DNA of 33,324 bases, from positions 1 through 33,324 of IMG/VR virus record IMGVR_UViG_2778261568_000008; one strand, given 5' to 3'. How positions within the stretch are numbered: position 1 is the stretch's first letter; each line of letters opens with the position of its first letter. Origin of the DNA: a virus (Duplodnaviria > Heunggongvirae > Uroviricota > Caudoviricetes). Shown in pieces: positions 1,090 to 30,144 of this stretch. The notes beneath the pieces were generated by a model. The model searched no databases. It had not been told where the DNA came from and saw only the letters and a program-made list of their open reading frames with translations. The translations under genes were made by a program, and so were the position numbers.

Positions 1090-1132
1090 TTCCCGCATTT
1101 CGGCGGGACAATCCCATCAATGTTAAAGAGCC
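1090..1132 (-). promoter_or_regulatory. nutL: boxA (1121-1132, GGCTCTTTAACA on the minus strand) plus boxB hairpin (1090-1108)
   Basis: The 19-nt boxB core is identical to the nutR boxB and boxA matches nutR at 11/12 positions, with 12-13 nt spacing in both; sits between PL and N. Confidence 0.65.
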
Positions 1133-1177
1133 TGCCAATCTGTTCCGTTTGGCTACCAGCGTCCTGCTGATGGCTAA

Positions 1178-1206
1178 AGAATACTGTAGGTATTTTATTG
1201 TGTAAA
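1178..1206 (-). promoter_or_regulatory. PL promoter (-35 TTTACA at 1201-1206, -10 TATTCT at 1178-1183, minus strand)
   Basis: 17-bp spacer; the -10 hexamer is the same as in PR and overlaps OL1. Confidence 0.5.
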
Positions 1207-1264
1207 TACCCAAGGTATTTATTTTTGGTGAAATAATGATAACCAAATGAATACAAAGGATATT
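1180..1264. promoter_or_regulatory. OL operators: AATAC-N5-GTATT sites at 1180-1194 and 1205-1219, degenerate third site at 1250-1264
   Basis: Same 15-bp inverted-repeat motif as the three OR sites; two sites are 25 bp centre to centre. Confidence 0.6.
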
Positions 1265-1350
1265 TATTTTTTCGGTGTCTGCTTGTTCAGTGTTTTTTAT
1301 GCGGGATATGTGAAGTGGATCCCGATAGCTATTGCTGTCGGGATTATGGG

Positions 1351-1719
1351 TTAGTCAGCGAAGGTTAAGACGAGAATTACCTTAATGATGTCTGCTACAA
1401 CAGACACGGCCATAGATAAACCAAAGACGATCCAAGCCATAGAGATGTCTTCACTACCATCGTATAGAGTTCCGTAATCACTGGTGTAAGGCGTAAATGT
1501 CGCGCCTTGATACAACAGGTATAAGCTTGAACCATAGAGGATAAATGCAGATATCCCTTGTATTGCTATGATCACTAGAATCATGAAACGAGCTGATCTA
1601 TGCGCCCAAGCCTGGCTTATTTTTTCTGATAGAGATTTCGCAATAAAAGCATGCGCTAAGCCGTAAATTGTCGAGATTGCCAACATCCCAAAAAAGCTTG
1701 CTATAGCGGTTCCAACCAT
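1351..1719 (-). CDS. Small multi-pass membrane protein (about 122 aa) co-transcribed with the repressor
   Basis: Hydrophobic throughout, roughly four predicted TM segments. ATG at 1719 with AAGGGG upstream lies 18 nt past the cI stop (track TTG start at 1740 overlaps the cI stop). Occupies the rexAB position. Confidence 0.6.
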   Translation of the reverse strand: MVGTAIASFFGMLAISTIYGLAHAFIAKSLSEKISQAWAHRSARFMILVIIAIQGISAFILYGSSLYLLYQGATFTPYTSDYGTLYDGSEDISMAWIVFGLSMAVSVVADIIKVILVLTFAD

Positions 1720-1736
1720 AATCGCCCCTTGCGTGA

Positions 1737-2453
1737 TCAAACCAGCCTTAGTTTTGTCTCAATTGCAACGCCTATAATCTTGCAGTTTCCATTGATTGGC
1801 ACGAGAGGCCATGCAGGATTAAGTCCCTTGAGGTATTTATTTCCGCCGTCGATTATCAGCTTCTTGAATGTTGCTTCGTTAGAGTCAGAAAGTTTTGCTA
1901 TGACCAAGCTGCCGTTGATCGCCTCCCTTCCGGTATCGAAAAGAACGAATGTTCCCTCTGGAATGCTTAACCCAACCGGTGCCGTCATTGAATCACCTTC
2001 CACTTTAAGCCAGAACGCATTACCTTGAATATGCGCGTCAGACTCAAGCCAAACATCTATGTCTTTAATGGTGTATGGTTCGCATGCTTCACACCACGAG
2101 CCAGCCTGGATACTGCTTAACACCGGATACCTCTTTCCTGCTCTGTATTCCCCTGCATACCTTACGTTGGCATCGCTCTTAAGGCTTTCTGCCTGTTCTG
2201 CAACCTTGGCAGCAATTGACTGGCTAAAATCAGCAATTGATACTTGCAACAATCGTGCAAAACCAGATGCAACCTCAACGTTTAGCGCGTTTCTGCCATT
2301 AAGATAATGCCCTACCGCTCCTTGGGTGATACCCAGTTCATCAGCGATTGAGTATTGGGTTATTCCCAATTCTTTCTTTTTTGACTCATACAAAGCCTTA
2401 AGCCGCTTAGCGTCTTCTAGCTGTTCTGTCGTCAGTGATTTTTTATTTTCCAT
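1737..2453 (-). CDS. cI: CI-type prophage repressor (N-terminal HTH, C-terminal S24 LexA-like peptidase domain)
   Basis: C-terminal domain with GDSM serine motif and conserved Lys, closely resembling P22 C2; the N-terminal HTH is different. No SD before the ATG at 2453, consistent with a leaderless PRM transcript. Confidence 0.95.
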   Translation of the reverse strand: MENKKSLTTEQLEDAKRLKALYESKKKELGITQYSIADELGITQGAVGHYLNGRNALNVEVASGFARLLQVSIADFSQSIAAKVAEQAESLKSDANVRYAGEYRAGKRYPVLSSIQAGSWCEACEPYTIKDIDVWLESDAHIQGNAFWLKVEGDSMTAPVGLSIPEGTFVLFDTGREAINGSLVIAKLSDSNEATFKKLIIDGGNKYLKGLNPAWPLVPINGNCKIIGVAIETKLRLV

Positions 2454-2459
2454 AGCTTA

Positions 2460-2530
2460 ATTCTAATAGCTAAGGTACTTAAACTAAAAATACCCTGAGT
2501 ATTGATTGCTTTGAATACCTGTAGTATTCT
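2460..2530. promoter_or_regulatory. OR region: OR3 2465-2479, OR2 2489-2503, OR1 2514-2528; PRM -10 TAGAAT (minus, 2460-2465); PR -35 TTGATT 2502-2507 and -10 TATTCT 2525-2530
   Basis: Three AATAC-N5-GTATT sites spaced 24-25 bp between divergent cI and cro; PRM -10 places the transcript start on the cI ATG. Confidence 0.65.
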
Positions 2531-2559
2531 TTGTTCATGGTTAATAACGGAGAGTGCAT

Positions 2560-2754
2560 ATGATTCGAATGACACTTGCCGATTACGCCAAAATCCATGG
2601 ACAGGCTAAAGCAGCCAGTGACTTTGGTGTAATCCAGTGCGCTATCAGCAAGGCCATTCTGGCAGGCCGTAACATCATGGTTACGGTAAAGCCTGATGGC
2701 AGTGTGATTGGAGAGGAAGTTCGTCCTTTCCCAAGCAACAAGAAAAACAAATAG
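2560..2754 (+). CDS. cro: Cro repressor
   Basis: 64 aa with lambda Cro-like sequence ([29 protein letters not shown] ... PFPSNKK); GGAGAG 5 nt before the ATG at 2560. Confidence 0.9.
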
Positions 2755-2760
2755 TAACAC

Positions 2761-2806
2761 CGCTCTTTAACAGTCATGGTCCTCATTCCCGCCGAAATGC
2801 GGGAAT
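2761..2806 (+). promoter_or_regulatory. nutR: boxA CGCTCTTTAACA (2761-2772) plus boxB hairpin (2785-2806, 8-bp stem, loop CGAAAT)
   Basis: Exact boxA consensus followed by a perfect hairpin, located just after cro as in lambda. Confidence 0.7.
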
Positions 2807-3322: not shown

Positions 3323-4214
3323 CATATCTAATCTAGCCGAAGCCAGAGAGGCCAGAAGGCTACAACAACCGCATCAAAGCAGCGGTAAGGGGTATGCCTT
3401 GCTGCACCGTAAAATTATGGATGTGCCGTTTTACAAGGACGCAGAAGCAGCACATCTGTGGGTTCACTTAATCCTCAAAGCAAAGCATACGCCTGAGTAT
3501 GTAATGACTGACGCAGGAGAAATTCTGGTAGGCAGAGGTAAGCTACTTGGCGGTAGAAACTCTCTGGCGTTTGAAACAGGACTCAAACCAGATCGCGTTC
3601 AGTACCTGCTTAGAAAGTTCAAAAAACTCGGCATGATTGACTGGGTTTCACACGGTAAATTCTCAGTTTTCTCGGTAGAGAAATATGACGATTATCAGTC
3701 AAATTTTGTACCAGCAGATTACCAGCAAATTACCACCTCAAAGCCAGCAATACCAATGCCTGCAAGCAATACTGTACCAGCAGATTACCAGCAAATTACC
3801 ACAGATAAAGAATATAATAATATTATCTCTAATACTGACGTATTAGAGAGTGCCACAGCAGACAAAAAGTCTGACAAGAAAAAACCTTCCGTCAGCTGTC
3901 AGGATGTTGTCGATGCTTACCACGAAATCCTTCCTGAAGCGCCAAGAATCCGCGCACTGAATGACAAGCGTAAAAACCAGATCCGAACGTTCTGGCGCAA
4001 AGCCGGAGTGATAACCCGACAGCTTGACGGGCATGGTTTCACGATGCAGGACTGGAGAAATTATTTGAGCTACGTTGGCGAAAATTGCCGATGGATGTTC
4101 GAAGAGCGCCCAAACCATCAGCGCGGAACCGTCTGGCACAAAAAGGGATTTGATTTCCTGCTTAACGACAATACCTACCTGAAAGTTCGTGAGGGTGAAC
4201 ACGATGACCGATAA
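3315..4214 (+). CDS. O: Replication initiator O-like protein
   Basis: Position after cII, GGAGAAAGG RBS, internal iterons encoding the repeated peptide [10 protein letters not shown]; stop overlaps the helicase start. Confidence 0.85.
3708..3802. repeat. Replication-origin iterons inside the O gene: two 29-bp direct repeats (3708-3736, 3774-3802), each holding two ACCAGCA(G/A)ATTACC half-repeats
   Basis: Exact direct repeats read in the sequence, followed by an AT-rich stretch at 3803-3840, as in the lambda ori. Confidence 0.7.
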
Positions 4215-24512: not shown

Positions 24513-25928
24513 ATGGCTACGTGGCAACAGGGTATTAATTCTGGTGGTTTTCTGGCTGGCATCGGTACGCAAAATGAGAATGCGCCAAAGGCAAGCGACA
24601 TTAACGCAACGCTTGGTCTGATCCGCGAAAACAATGAACTGGCTCGCTCAGGTGCAAATAACGTTGGTCTGACCGCGTTACGTGGTCTGGCTGGAGTTGC
24701 TGATATTTACAATCAGGAACAGCAACAGAAAGCTATTAGTGCGTTCAATAAGGTTCACGCTGATGCATGGGCTTCTGGTGATCCATCGGGACTATTTAAG
24801 TTTGCCCAGGAAAATCCAGCGTTTGTTGCACAGGCACAACAGGCGTTTTCCGGTCTTAATGAGCAGCAACGCAACGATATGGGTGATTTAGCCATGAGGG
24901 CTAACGTCGCTCTTTCTCAGGGACCGGAAGCCTACAGTAAATTCATTACTGACAACAAGGACAGGTTAAATCGCGTGGGGGCGAATGCTGACTGGATGAT
25001 TCAGACAGGTATCCAGAATCCAGAGCAGCTATCACACATGCTGACTACTATGTCTCTCGGTGCGCTTGGACCAGAAAAGGCGTTTGCTGTTCAGGACAAG
25101 ATGGCTGGTCGTGAAATTGACCGAGGCAAACTGGCAGAGACAATCCGCAGCAATCAGGCTGGAGAAGCACTTCAGGCGAGAGGGCAAAACCTTTCCTATC
25201 AGTCAGCAATGACTGGACACAATATCGCAGCACAACGCTTGGCTCTGGATCAGCAAGAGTTCGGGTTTAAGATGCAGCAAGCGCAGGAAAAGGCTCAGCA
25301 GTTGATTAGCGAAGCACCTAAGCTGTCAGTAAACATGGAAAAAGGCATCGAGACGGCTGTAAACAATGCCACAGCATCATCAAACTCAGCCAATTCCATG
25401 AGTGCGCTTGCTCAACAGTTCAGAGCAGAAAAACCAACGACAGGTTTGTTCGGTAACGCACAGAACATGTTCGCAAAACTTACCGGAAGCGATACGACAT
25501 TGCGTGATTTGCGCATTCGCCAAAATGCCCTTGTTAACAGTCAGGTTCTTAAATTCCTACCTCCCGGCCCAGCAACGGATAAAGACGTTGAGATCGTTCG
25601 ACAGGGTGCGCCAACTGACATGGATAACCCTGAGACGGTCGCAAGATGGCTTGATGCAATGGCAAACCTTGAGCGACGAAACGCGCAGTTTAATGAGTTT
25701 AAAGCCGAGTGGATGAGCGCGAATGGCAACCCTGGACAATCGCGTAATGGCGGTCAGATATTGGGGTTGGATGTTAAAAAAGGTGAATCATTGGGGAGTG
25801 CCGTTAAGCGGTATATGTCAATGAATACTGACGCAGCGCCAGCACAAGATTCGACACCTTCAGGTGAACCACGGAATCAGGTTGGATCATATACCTCAAA
25901 ATCAGGCATTCAATTTACGGTGGAATGA
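24513..25928 (+). CDS. Ejection protein (P22 gp20-like)
   Basis: 471 aa in the expected position. Confidence 0.7.
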
Positions 25929-28661: not shown

Positions 28662-28685
28662 ACCCACCTTCAGGTGGGTTTTTTG
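28662..28685. terminator. Terminator hairpin between the convergent lipoprotein and mnt genes
   Basis: ACCCACC / GGTGGGT stem with 4-nt loop, TTTTTT on the plus strand. Confidence 0.6.
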
Positions 28686-28921
28686 TACAAATCCTTCAGC
28701 GTATCAAACACCATCTTCTTAACAAGCTCTGACTGCTCATCAGCGAGTCGTTCTGCATCGTCGCGATATCCAGTCACAGGCGATGGTTTTGATAGAGCAT
28801 CTTGGACGATTTGTAACAACTCGGAGTTCATTGATCTCCCATTCGCCTCCGCCCTGAATTTTAATTTCTCCCTTACTTCCATAGGCATACGGAAGTTAAA
28901 GTGCGGATCATCTCTAGCCAT
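28670..28921 (-). CDS. mnt: Mnt repressor (ribbon-helix-helix)
   Basis: 83 aa matching my recollection of P22 Mnt; its cognate 17-bp operator lies upstream. Confidence 0.9.
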   Translation of the reverse strand: MARDDPHFNFRMPMEVREKLKFRAEANGRSMNSELLQIVQDALSKPSPVTGYRDDAERLADEQSELVKKMVFDTLKDLYKKPT

Positions 28922-28943
28922 GCCATCACTCCAAGTTAGTGTA

Positions 28944-28995
28944 TTGACATGATAGAAGCACTCTACTATATTCTCAATAGGTCCACGGTGGACCT
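28944..28995. promoter_or_regulatory. immI control region: Pant (-35 TTGACA 28944-28949, -10 TATATT 28967-28972), Arc operator (28949-28969), Mnt operator (28979-28995, AGGTCCACGGTGGACCT)
   Basis: Perfect 17-bp palindrome and a 21-bp near-palindrome between divergent mnt and arc. Confidence 0.7.
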
Positions 28996-29011
28996 ATATT
29001 GTGAGGTAAAT

Positions 29012-29173
29012 ATGAAAGGAATGAGCAAGATGCCGCAGTTCAATTTGCGGTGGCCTAAAGAAGTATTAGATTTGGTACGCAAGGTGGCGGAAGAGAATGG
29101 TCGGTCTGTTAACTCTGAGATTTATCAGAGAGTAATGGAAAGCTTTAAGAAGGAAGGGCGCATTGGCGCGTAA
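29012..29173 (+). CDS. arc: Arc repressor (ribbon-helix-helix, 53 aa)
   Basis: [15 protein letters not shown] ... matches P22 Arc; GAGGT RBS. Confidence 0.9.
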
Positions 29174-29176
29174 AGT

Positions 29177-29246
29177 TGAAGCCCCAACTGCGGGAACAGT
29201 CAGGGCTTCGGTTGTCAGTAAATCCGTGGAGAAAAACCAACATGAA
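29177..29246 (-). ncRNA. Possible sar-type antisense RNA across the arc-ant junction
   Basis: In P22 a short antisense RNA covers the ant RBS; the same intercistronic arrangement and a GAAGCCC / GGGCTTC inverted repeat (29178-29209) are present. Boundaries are approximate. Confidence 0.3.
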
Positions 29247-30144
29247 TAGTATAGCAATTTTAGAAGCAGTGAACACCTCTTACGTACCATTCAACGGTCA
29301 GCAAATTATCACCGCCATGGCTGCCGGAGTTGCATACGTTGCGATGAAGCCAATCGTTGAAAACCTTGGAATGAGTTGGGGTACTCAGCAACAAAAACTT
29401 ATGAAACAACTAGATAAGTTCAACTGTATTCATATGAATATGGTTGCCGCTGATGGGAAGCTTCGTAAGCTACTCTGCCTTCCTTTGAAGAAGTTAAATG
29501 GATGGCTGTTCAGCATCAACCCTGAGAAAGTTCGAGCTGACATCCGCGATAAACTGATTCAGTACCAGGAAGAATGCTTTACTGTACTGCATGACTACTG
29601 GACAAAGGGAAAGGCAGAAAATGCACGTAAGAAAACATCTGTTGATGACAGGACTCCGCTTCGTGATGCTGTAAATATGCTAGTCAGCAAAAAGCATCTA
29701 ATGTACCCAGAAGCTTATGCAATGATTCATCAGCGTTTCAATGTGGAAAGTATTGAAGAGCTTGATGCATCTCAGATACCGCAAGCCGTAGAGTACATCC
29801 ACAGGGTAGTGCTTGAAGGTGAGTTCATCGGCAAACAAGAGAAGAAAACCAACGAGCTTTCTGCAAAAGAAGCAAACAGCCTTGTATGGCTATGGGATTA
29901 TGCCAACCGCTCACAGGCATTATTCCGCGAACTGTATCCGGCGCTGAAACAAATTCAATCGAACTATTCCGGCAGATGTCATGACTGCGGTTATGAGTTC
30001 TCCCGTATTATCGATATAGCGAGAGACGTTTTAATCAATCACTCACGAGATGTTGATATCAATGAGCCAGACGGACCAACGAATCTTTCCGCATGGATGA
30101 GACTTAAGAATAAAGAATTACCTCCTTCAGTACATAACTACTGA
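29242..30144 (+). CDS. ant: Antirepressor Ant (P22 type)
   Basis: 300 aa matching my recollection of P22 Ant; GGAG RBS before the ATG at 29242. Confidence 0.9.

Follow-up and report, generated by a model that had tools for sequence, protein, structure and literature searches.

The window, which is the whole 33,324-bp stretch of viral DNA that we analyzed, contains divergent cI and cro genes. The cI gene (1737 to 2453, minus strand) encodes a 238-amino-acid repressor that joins a helix-turn-helix (HTH) N-terminal domain to an S24 peptidase C-terminal domain, whereas cro (2560 to 2754, plus strand), which is annotated in HK620, encodes a 64-amino-acid protein of the lambda Cro family. Three palindromic operators lie over PR and PRM between these genes, and a second cluster of like operators lies over PL, upstream of nutL and N, which is the lambdoid arrangement. 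Downstream from cI, where lambda has rexAB, there is instead one small hkaS-like gene (1351 to 1719, minus strand). Its hydrophobic product, also annotated in HK620, matched phrog_6534 (function unknown) at an E value of 4e-79 and had no Pfam match. An N-like ORF (472-870) matched phrog_271 (E 1e-37). The HK620 annotation and the sequence itself identified nutL (1090 to 1131, minus strand; boxA GCTCTTTAA, boxB GTCCCGCCGAAATGCGGGAA) and nutR (2761 to 2806, plus strand; boxA CGCTCTTTA, boxB TTCCCGCCGAAATGCGGGAA).

Positions 1100-2800 of the window are 99.1% identical to coliphage HK620 (GenBank AF335538 / NC_002730), whose record annotates OL1-3, OR1-3, pL and pR in this region. The two share cI, hkaS, cro, cII and the nut sites, and OL1, OL2, OR1-3, pL and pR occupy the same positions. 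None of the 16 substitutions relative to HK620 falls in OL1, OL2, OR1-3 or a candidate OL3 (1249-1265) described below, and the CI N-terminal domain matches those of HK620, HK140 and HF4s at 99-100% identity. Sharing its cI, cro and operator sequences with HK620, the region is of the HK620 immunity type; judged by its sequence, the switch is one already known, the HK620-type immC of a P22-like E. coli prophage. Because it combines 99% identity to an annotated region with a lambda-like build, it is an ordinary switch. The original prediction described this DNA well and did not recognize it as the annotated HK620 immunity region. The window differs from HK620 in its N and late regions, which diverge, and in carrying a complete P22-type immI region; the rest of its virion and replication genome is P22-like. 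The HK620 genome was reportedly published by Clark and colleagues (J Mol Biol 311:657) in 2001, the year in which the region was annotated. The literature that we searched contained no experimental footprint, EMSA, 5′-end mapping or immunity test for HK620-type operators.

The operator motif

A search of the whole window for AATACNNNNNGTATT with at most one mismatch found five matches, where 0.69 was expected by chance, and five or more matches occurred in 0 of 100 shuffles. The copies lie at 1180-1194, 1205-1219, 1250-1264 (one mismatch), 2489-2503 and 2514-2528, and thus form two clusters (1180-1264 and 2489-2528) on either side of the cI-like gene; the window contains no other copy at this threshold. 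These counts bear out the proposal that OL and OR share an AATAC-N5-GTATT operator. Of the "five or six" copies originally proposed, five hold. The sixth, AATAGCTAAGGTACT at 2465-2479, overlaps the PRM −10 and has two mismatches, which places it in a class that was not enriched in the window (18 found, 12.6 expected).

The operator was first described as 15 bp long. The motif itself stands, but the sequence is better read as a 17-bp operator with AATACY half-sites, in lambda's register. When 17-mers were scored against AATACY half-sites, eight sites in the window reached at least 10/12, and six of these are the OL and OR operator sites. Position 7 of the half-site, which was outside the search pattern, was C or T in 128 of the 134 half-sites compared. 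The 18-bp P22-type operators (ANTNAAG-N4-CTTNANT) were not enriched in the window and did not occur as sets at OL or OR, and lambda-type 17-bp operators of the TATCACCG type had no match in the window at up to three mismatches.

The right operators, PR and PRM

OR1 (2513 to 2529; GAATACCTGTAGTATTC), OR2 (2488 to 2504; AAATACCCTGAGTATTG) and the weak OR3 (2464 to 2480; TAATAGCTAAGGTACTT), which like the left operators are given without strand, lie between cI and cro. PR (2502 to 2530, plus strand) consists of TTGATT (2502-2507), a 17-nt spacer and TATTCT (2525-2530), and HK620 pR is annotated at window positions 2502-2537. We read PR from the sequence; it was missing from the promoter scan list because its 8/12 match fell below the 9/12 threshold. 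Its −10 has 5 bp in common with OR1 and is conserved in relatives as TATTNT, and its −35 has 3 bp in common with OR2.

The PRM −10, TAGAAT (2460 to 2465, minus strand), has 2 bp in common with OR3 and is separated by six nucleotides, TAAGCT, from the cI ATG, whose A is at 2453. At a 17-nt spacing the −35 is TTTAGT (2488 to 2483), a 3/6 match that touches OR2. Inspection of the sequence upstream of the cI ATG revealed no GGAG-like or other Shine-Dalgarno sequence, and in 14 related loci a −10-like hexamer is likewise found at a distance of 5-7 nt from the cI ATG. With a −10 that places the start at the A of the ATG and no Shine-Dalgarno sequence, the gene has the leaderless type of layout, and PRM transcription probably starts at that A to yield a leaderless cI-hkaS mRNA. 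The comparison also suggests that PRM should be added to the HK620 record, in which none is annotated. The original prediction fared well here: it had PL and PR sharing a TATTCT −10 over the nearest operator, TAGAAT just before the cI ATG, and a poor PRM −35 abutting OR2.

This layout closely follows that of lambda, in which TAGATT-TAACGT-ATG provides the −10, six nucleotides and a leaderless start. In both switches the PRM −10 shares 2 bp with OR3, the PR −35 shares 3 bp with OR2, and OR3 is centered at −19 from the cI ATG; the center of OR2 is at −43 here rather than at −42 as in lambda.

The left operators and PL

PL (1178 to 1206, minus strand; TTTACA-17-TATTCT) was found by the promoter scan, and HK620 pL is annotated at window positions 1171-1206. 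OL1 (1179 to 1195; GAATACTGTAGGTATTT) is a perfect copy of the motif that matches the AATACY half-sites at 12/12 and has the coordinates of HK620 OL1. It has 5 bp in common with the PL −10, and its center is at about −16 from the inferred PL start. OL2 (1204 to 1220; AAATACCCAAGGTATTT) overlaps the PL −35 and lies 25 bp from OL1, a spacing that is kept in relatives.

The third left copy, candidate OL3 (1249 to 1265; GAATACAAAGGATATTT), had been placed exactly where such a site is expected. That claim failed: the site is 45 bp center-to-center from OL2, compared with 24 bp between OR2 and OR3, and at about −86 from the PL start. A distance of 45 bp is too great for lambda-style adjacent cooperativity. 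Candidate OL3 scores 10/12, which equals the score of OR3, whereas the OL3 of the HK620 GenBank record (window 1226-1242) scores only 4/12. The sequence at 1249-1265 fits the operator consensus far better, which suggests a correction to that record. The candidate had a P value of about 0.03 in local shuffles, and four related loci (L003, L005, L006 and L010) contain a weak operator-like site at the same −70 offset. Its status is uncertain because its right half lies partly within an A/T element that is conserved also in lambda. In the five loci that share this arrangement, the 30 bp separating OL2 from the third site were inspected by eye and showed no consistent match to the IHF consensus WATCAANNNNTTR. 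A terminator scan of the minus strand between hkaS and OL found no canonical intrinsic terminator. The tIMM of the HK620 annotation is a weak A/T hairpin, and it overlaps the third OL site.

Conservation in diverged relatives

We compared the region with Erwinia phage vB_EhrS_49 and 17 prophage loci (n = 18) whose CI N-terminal domains are 57-68% identical; the prophages are from Serratia, Pectobacterium, Pantoea, Tatumella, Yersinia, Morganella and Providencia, together with one record titled Chryseobacterium. The helix (T/S)Q(G/S)(A/G)VGHY(L/M/I)NGR was kept in 18 of 18. In most of these relatives the motif copies lie at constant distances from the cI ATG, and a second cluster lies beyond cI. 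Where Cro is of the lambda type the offsets are about −75, −50 and −26, and they are slightly shifted in the four Morganella loci; the Morganella loci differ from the other relatives in having no adjacent lambda-type cro. Copies with at most one mismatch were confined to OR and to this second cluster. The motif has drifted in L014, L016/L017 and L019, L012 has no OL copy within the stretch examined, and lambda has no copy.

The Erwinia phage and the prophages thus share the operator motif and OR geometry of the window, but their spacers and flanks have diverged, and in some of them OL3 is 21 bp from OL2. When the OR regions were aligned, the half-sites, the PRM −10 and the PR −10 were invariant, whereas the N5 cores and spacers varied, so that the alignment looks like a footprint. 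Most relatives have a perfect OR1; where an OR3 is present, it is never perfect. Position, statistics, the 18 diverged relatives and direct comparison with lambda together back the original prediction of a lambdoid set of OL and OR operators.

CI, Cro and operator specificity

CI matched PF01381 and PF00717, and its recognition helix is ITQGAVGHYLNGRN (residues 42-55). Its Ala117-Gly118, Ser155 and Lys197 align with A111-G112, S149 and K192 of lambda CI, and the protein thus has the HTH and LexA-like self-cleaving S24 domain of a lambdoid repressor. The N-terminal domain is 50% identical to that of lambda CI, and full-length CI matches PDB 3BDN with an E value of 3e-52. By contrast, the C-terminal (oligomerization) domain is 72% identical to that of 434 cI, 55% to that of P22 C2 and only 40% to that of lambda. 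The C-terminal domain had been called P22 C2-like, which is approximately right although 434 cI is nearer; the HTH had been called different, which is correct in that it is not that of P22, and missed its identity as a lambda-CI-type domain. Structures of the P22 c2 N-terminal domain were not among the PDB matches to CI, P22 was not found in a tblastn search with the CI N-terminal domain, and at the thresholds used neither the P22 nor the 434 N-terminal domain was detected as a relative. Operators of the 434 type are 14 bp long and of the ACAA type. As its likeness to P22 immC is limited to the 55% identity of the C-terminal domain and P22 operators are not enriched, the expectation that the specificity would not be that of P22 is supported.

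We also considered a recent lambda/434 chimeric repressor and rejected it. CI of Erwinia phage vB_EhrS_49 has the same recognition helix as the CI of the window, and the 65% identity between the two full-length proteins is spread evenly over both domains, which implies that the two domains have long traveled together.

The operators resemble those of lambda in being 17 bp long with a central base pair and in their overlaps with the promoters. Half-sites of both types have A, A, C and C at positions 2, 5, 6 and 7, whereas bp 3 and 4 differ (NAATACY here, TATCACCG in lambda), and the operators are spaced 24 and 25 bp apart, against 23 and 24 bp in lambda. CI retains Gln33, Asp38, Gln44, Asn52, Asn55 and the Lys4/Lys5 arm of the lambda repressor and differs at Ser45→Gly, Gly46→Ala, Ala49→His and Glu34→Tyr. 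Gln44 and Ser45 of lambda CI contact bp 2 and 4 (PMC5222340); here Gln44 is retained along with the conserved A at bp 2, and Ser45 is replaced by Gly where bp 4 goes from C to T. Since the recognition residues differ and no lambda-type operator was found at up to three mismatches, the region is not of the lambda immunity type.

Cro matched PF09048 at an E value of 4e-26 (91.3 bits, against a curated cutoff of 32.7) and lambda Cro PDB chains at 5e-19, and it belongs to the same fold family as lambda Cro. Its recognition helix, QCAISKA, has Gln, Ala and Lys at positions H1, H3 and H6, and differs from that of lambda by Ser28→Cys and Asn31→Ser. The published Cro code predicts A2, A5 and C6 from these residues (PMC6649833), and the half-site has A2, A5 and C6, in agreement with the prediction.

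A model for the switch

We put at roughly 90% the probability that this HK620-type lambdoid immC region works like the lambda genetic switch. CI, a lambda-CI-type HTH domain with an N-terminal arm attached to a 434/P22-type self-cleaving domain, and the lambda-type Cro would bind the same 17-bp operators through the half-site N-A-A-T-A-C-Y; in lambdoid phages operators are common to CI and Cro (PMC6649833). In a lysogen, CI on OR1/OR2 and OL1/OL2 would cover the −10 and −35 elements of PR and PL and turn off early transcription, and the same occupancy would make the lysogen immune to phages that carry these operators. Bound at OR2, which abuts the weak PRM −35, CI probably activates PRM through the conserved Asp38 patch, although activation is not assured because lambda has OR2 1 bp closer to PRM and, in its activation patch, a Glu34 that is Tyr here. 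Since the weak OR3 overlaps the PRM −10, high levels of CI or Cro would turn PRM down. The sequence shows the sites, with their enrichment, geometry and conservation alongside the recognition helices, and the protein homologies; from these we infer binding, PRM activation, the transcript start, the order of affinity and what the third left site does. SOS induction should cleave CI at Ala117-Gly118.

One part of the model that we hold with less assurance concerns OL. Only OL1 and OL2 might work, with 1249-1265 being a by-product of the conserved A/T-rich element ATTTATTTTTT upstream of PL, which could have another purpose, for example as a terminator tail, in DNA bending or as a mosaic boundary. 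Lambda has the same element upstream of OL, as do relatives that have OL3 elsewhere, and part of the right half-site comes from it; 1249-1265 also has a mismatch in each half and a spacing unlike that of OR. However, its score equals that of OR3, its local P value is low, and its left half is operator-like (AATAC, AATAT, AGTAT or AATCT) in all five loci with this layout. Loci with OL3 at 21 bp carry TTTTT-like sequence there instead, so that every layout totals three OL sites. We therefore doubt the two-operator arrangement while taking it seriously. A second point concerns the cI transcript, which could start further upstream or elsewhere, with cI translated from a short leader. Three or four related loci have a gap of 5 or 7 nt, not 6, between hexamer and ATG, those of Morganella depart further from it, and the HK620 record has no PRM. 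This alternative is unlikely, given that TAGAAT, six nucleotides and ATG reproduce the lambda arrangement with no Shine-Dalgarno sequence and that the hexamer and its distances to the ATG and OR3 are conserved in 14 loci while the intervening six nucleotides vary.

It is highly improbable that the palindromes are bound by Cro or another factor only and that CI recognizes some other sequence within these intergenic regions: OL and OR have no further repeated element in common, the CI recognition helix is kept with the motif in every locus, even the Morganella loci that lack an adjacent lambda-type cro, and operator sharing by CI and Cro is the lambdoid pattern. We give even less credence to the copies being chance A/T-rich palindromes or promoter elements, or to P22 or lambda specificity. 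Promoter conservation could mimic some operator conservation, as the GTATT half-site overlaps the −10 TATTCT, but the motif is found well above chance expectation and conservation covers both half-sites, also where they lie outside any promoter hexamer. Neither P22-type enrichment nor lambda-type operators were seen, and P22 and 434 N-terminal domains were not detected as relatives of CI.

Beyond the lambda-like switch itself, the CI, Cro and operators of this family may represent a naturally occurring variant of the lambda pair that differs in specificity, with OL3 displaced in one sub-lineage, a reading of the sequences that we offer tentatively, at slightly less than even odds. Half-site bp 3-4 would have gone from TC to AT with contacts to bp 2, 5 and 6 kept, and the substitutions noted above at CI residues 45, 46 and 49 and Cro residues 28 and 31 would have changed along with the operator. 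In the sub-lineage of the window, the third left operator would lie two helical turns further out than in the others, and with 45 bp between it and OL2 the geometry of OL-OR looping would be unlike that of lambda, where the third site is not so displaced. If true, this would be a small extension of known recognition and looping rules and not a new kind of system. The family provides a clean test, supplied by nature, of the rules of lambda-type protein-DNA recognition and opens no new question.

For annotation, the immunity type can be recognized from the motif and the recognition helix, which helps to predict which prophages exclude which phages, and two corrections to the HK620 record are suggested, the better OL3 candidate and PRM. 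The same module is present in 16 phage records and in 146 of 5426 complete E. coli genomes (about 2.7%). This immunity type is also found in some Stx2c-converting phages.

An HK620-type immunity region on the lambda plan

Positions 1100-2800 of the window are 99.1% identical to coliphage HK620, and 15 further phage records, including HF4s, HK630, HK140, mEpX2 and two Stx2c phages, match the same interval at 98.7-99.3%. When the HK620 GenBank annotation was mapped onto the window, OL1, OL2, OR3, OR2 and OR1 fell at 1179-1195, 1204-1220, 2464-2480, 2488-2504 and 2513-2529, respectively; pL, pR, nutL, nutR, cI, hkaS, cro and cII are likewise annotated in that record at matching positions. The record carries no annotation for PRM, and no binding or transcript experiments on the HK620 immunity region were found in the literature that we searched. 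The region is the already annotated HK620 immunity region, arranged on the lambda plan. The 16 substitutions that distinguish the window from HK620 here all lie outside the operators. Among 5426 complete E. coli genomes, 146 carry the N-terminal half of cI together with OR at ≥90% identity, in every case on the chromosome. Taken as a whole, the window represents a mosaic phage of P22-like type, with phiv205-1, HK620, Kapi1 and CUS-3 as relatives.

The original prediction, in which AATAC-N5-GTATT serves as the operator shared by OL and OR, was essentially right, and its support now includes conservation across genera. What remains is confirmation work and two small improvements to the HK620 record, the annotation of PRM and of OL3.

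In the interval 1178-2530, copies of the motif lie on both sides of the repressor gene cI (238 aa; minus strand, 1737-2453). With at most one mismatch allowed, five copies were found in the 33,324-bp window (1180-1194, 1205-1219, 1250-1264, 2489-2503 and 2514-2528) versus 0.69 expected by chance, and five copies were reached in none of 100 shuffles. A sixth copy, at 2465-2479, has two mismatches, a class that is not enriched by itself over the whole window. Of the five or six copies claimed at the expected positions of OL1-3 and OR1-3, five were confirmed and the sixth is weak; the third OL site is not exactly where expected. When 17-mers were scored against AATACY, the extended half-site, the window yielded only eight sites with 10/12 or more; six of these are the OL and OR copies, and the other two (204-220 and 24536-24552) are probably chance matches.

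The motif in diverged relatives

The proposed search of related prophages for the same motif had a clear outcome. Erwinia phage vB_EhrS_49, a phage of another genus, encodes a CI that is 65% identical to the window CI with an identical recognition helix, ITQGAVGHYLNGRN, and carries three motif copies in the cI-cro interval and another three upstream of N. To sample relatives, we searched a single genome of each bacterial species with the CI N-terminal domain and obtained 17 prophage loci (57-68% identity) from Serratia, Pectobacterium, Pantoea, Tatumella, Yersinia, Morganella, Providencia and one record titled Chryseobacterium. The helix (T/S)Q(G/S)(A/G)VGHY(L/M/I)NGR was kept in all relative loci. 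Within the 5-kb loci, the motif with at most one mismatch was confined to the region between cI and cro and to a second cluster on the far side of cI; this second cluster was absent from one locus (L012) within the stretch examined, and the lambda region contained no copy. In loci with a lambda-type Cro, the OR-side copies were positioned about −75, −50 and −26 relative to the cI ATG. Offsets were slightly shifted in four Morganella loci, and four other loci (L014, L016/L017 and L019) had drifted versions with more mismatches.

A 14-locus OR alignment was invariant at the half-sites, at the −10 hexamers of both PRM and PR, and at the start of cI; the N5 cores and spacers were variable. Half-site position 7 was C or T in 128/134 half-sites, even though it lies outside the search pattern. 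Because OR1 is perfect in most loci and OR3 never is, the sequences fit a strong OR1 and a weak OR3.

The Morganella prophages (L011, L013, L015 and L018) keep the CI recognition helix and the motif, and none has a lambda-type cro adjoining OR. On the OL side they have two sites separated by 45-47 bp, and their −10-like hexamer is also at a different distance from the cI ATG.

Promoters and the third left operator

PL (TTTACA-17-TATTCT, minus strand) was found by a promoter scan; PR (TTGATT-17-TATTCT, 2502-2530), slightly below the threshold of that scan, was read from the sequence. As originally described, both −10 hexamers are TATTCT and overlap the nearest operator, with five bases common to each pair, and six bases separate the PRM hexamer TAGAAT (2465 to 2460) from the cI ATG at 2453. 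No Shine-Dalgarno sequence was seen upstream of this ATG. Relatives keep the hexamer-to-ATG distance at 5-7 nt, with varying bases in the gap, which supports a predicted leaderless start for cI.

The third OL site of the original prediction, the 15-mer 1250-1264, corresponds to the 17-mer 1249-1265. The HK620 record places OL3 elsewhere, at 1226-1242 (1627-1643 on L001), 23 bp nearer PL. The GenBank site matches the consensus at 4/12 versus 10/12 for the predicted site, which equals OR3, and no site between them exceeds 6/12. A 10/12 site arises in 3% of local 130-bp shuffles. The relatives show two layouts. Four loci (L002, L004, L007 and L008) have OL3 at 21 bp from OL2; the other layout, shared by the window with L003, L005, L006 and L010, has a weak operator-like site at a distance of 45 bp from OL2. 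Part of the third-site match has another explanation, since the right half of that site runs into an A/T element, ATTTATTTTTT, that is also conserved upstream of OL in the 21-bp layout and in lambda. On balance, we lean towards 1249-1265 as the likelier OL3.

The A/T element, at window positions 1260-1272 and lambda (L020) positions 675-685, recurs ahead of OL in nearly all of the relatives (L002-L019). Its plus-strand sequence is ATTTATTTTTT, or AAAAAATAAAT when followed in the direction of PL, and it precedes the PL start by about 85-100 bp. It could be a region for bending or IHF, the tail of a terminator, or sequence at a mosaic boundary.

Comparison with lambda

Direct comparison with the lambda sequence revealed the same layout, almost base for base. 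PRM is joined to cI by TAGAAT, 6 nt (TAAGCT) and ATG, compared with TAGATT, 6 nt (TAACGT) and ATG in lambda. The PRM −10 overlaps OR3 by 2 bp and the PR −35 overlaps OR2 by 3 bp in both phages; the OR3 centre is at −19 from the cI start in both, whereas the OR2 centre is at −43 here and −42 in lambda. In the 17-bp register of the HK620 annotation, the half-site N-A-A-T-A-C-Y shares positions 2, 5, 6 and 7 with lambda's T-A-T-C-A-C-C but differs at 3 and 4. The window CI keeps Gln33, Gln44, Asn52, Asn55 and the Lys4-Lys5 arm of lambda CI, but has Gly for Ser45, Ala for Gly46 and His for Ala49. In lambda, base pairs 2 and 4 are contacted by Gln44/Ser45 of CI and Gln27/Ser28 of Cro (PMC5222340). 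Gln, Ala and Lys occupy helix positions H1, H3 and H6 of the window Cro and of its counterparts in all 14 related loci encoding a Cro of lambda type; according to the published Cro code, these residues go with A2, A5 and C6 (PMC6649833), exactly the observed half-site bases. The kept and changed half-site positions agree with these CI and Cro residues.

By analogy with lambda, CI at OR1/OR2 and OL1/OL2 would occlude PR and PL, CI at OR2 would activate PRM, and OR3 would mediate negative autoregulation. Among the features for PRM activation, Asp38 is conserved, whereas Tyr replaces Glu34 and OR2 lies 1 bp more distant than in lambda.

Among solved structures, the repressor is closest to full-length lambda CI (3BDN, E 3e-52), with which it shares 43% identity overall. 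The first 108 residues of the repressor have 50% identity to lambda CI and do not detectably match the N-terminal domains of P22 or 434, and its C-terminal 130 residues are 72% identical to 434 cI, 55% to P22 C2 and 40% to lambda. The earlier description of a P22 C2-like C-terminal domain paired with a different HTH was therefore roughly right, although 434 is nearer and the HTH is of lambda type. A recent chimeric origin was rejected because the Erwinia CI is equally similar to the window CI in both domains; the repressor family is an old and coherent one. Ala117-Gly118, Ser155 and Lys197 align with the lambda self-cleavage residues, so SOS induction would be expected. Cro (2560-2754) is a lambda Cro family member, matching PF09048 at E 4e-26 and lambda Cro in the PDB at E 5e-19.

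A second immunity region and other features

A complete P22-type second immunity region (immI) occupies 28670-30144 and comprises Mnt (28670-28921, minus strand), Arc (29012-29173), the sar antisense RNA (29174-29241; Rfam RF00262, 95.6 bits) and the antirepressor Ant (29242-30144). Immunity is thus predicted to be bipartite, with an HK620-type immC and a P22-type immI. In HK620 itself, ant was reported to be degraded (PMC2629481).

An hkaS-like gene (1351-1719, minus strand) takes the place of lambda rexAB between cI and OL; its product of about 122 aa has several hydrophobic stretches, no Pfam match, and a PHROG family without known function. It is a candidate for a prophage-expressed exclusion or conversion function.

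The N region (472-1100) is not colinear with HK620, with about 206 extra bases between matching blocks; the N-like ORF is at 472-870 (phrog_271), compared with a 90-aa N in HK620. The boxB hairpins of nutL and nutR have CCCGCCGAAATGCGGGAA in common. Direct repeats of about 35 nt at 3702-3802, inside the O-like replication gene, encode a repeated 10-residue unit of the O-like protein and coincide with the rep_origin annotated in HK620; these are the expected ori iterons.
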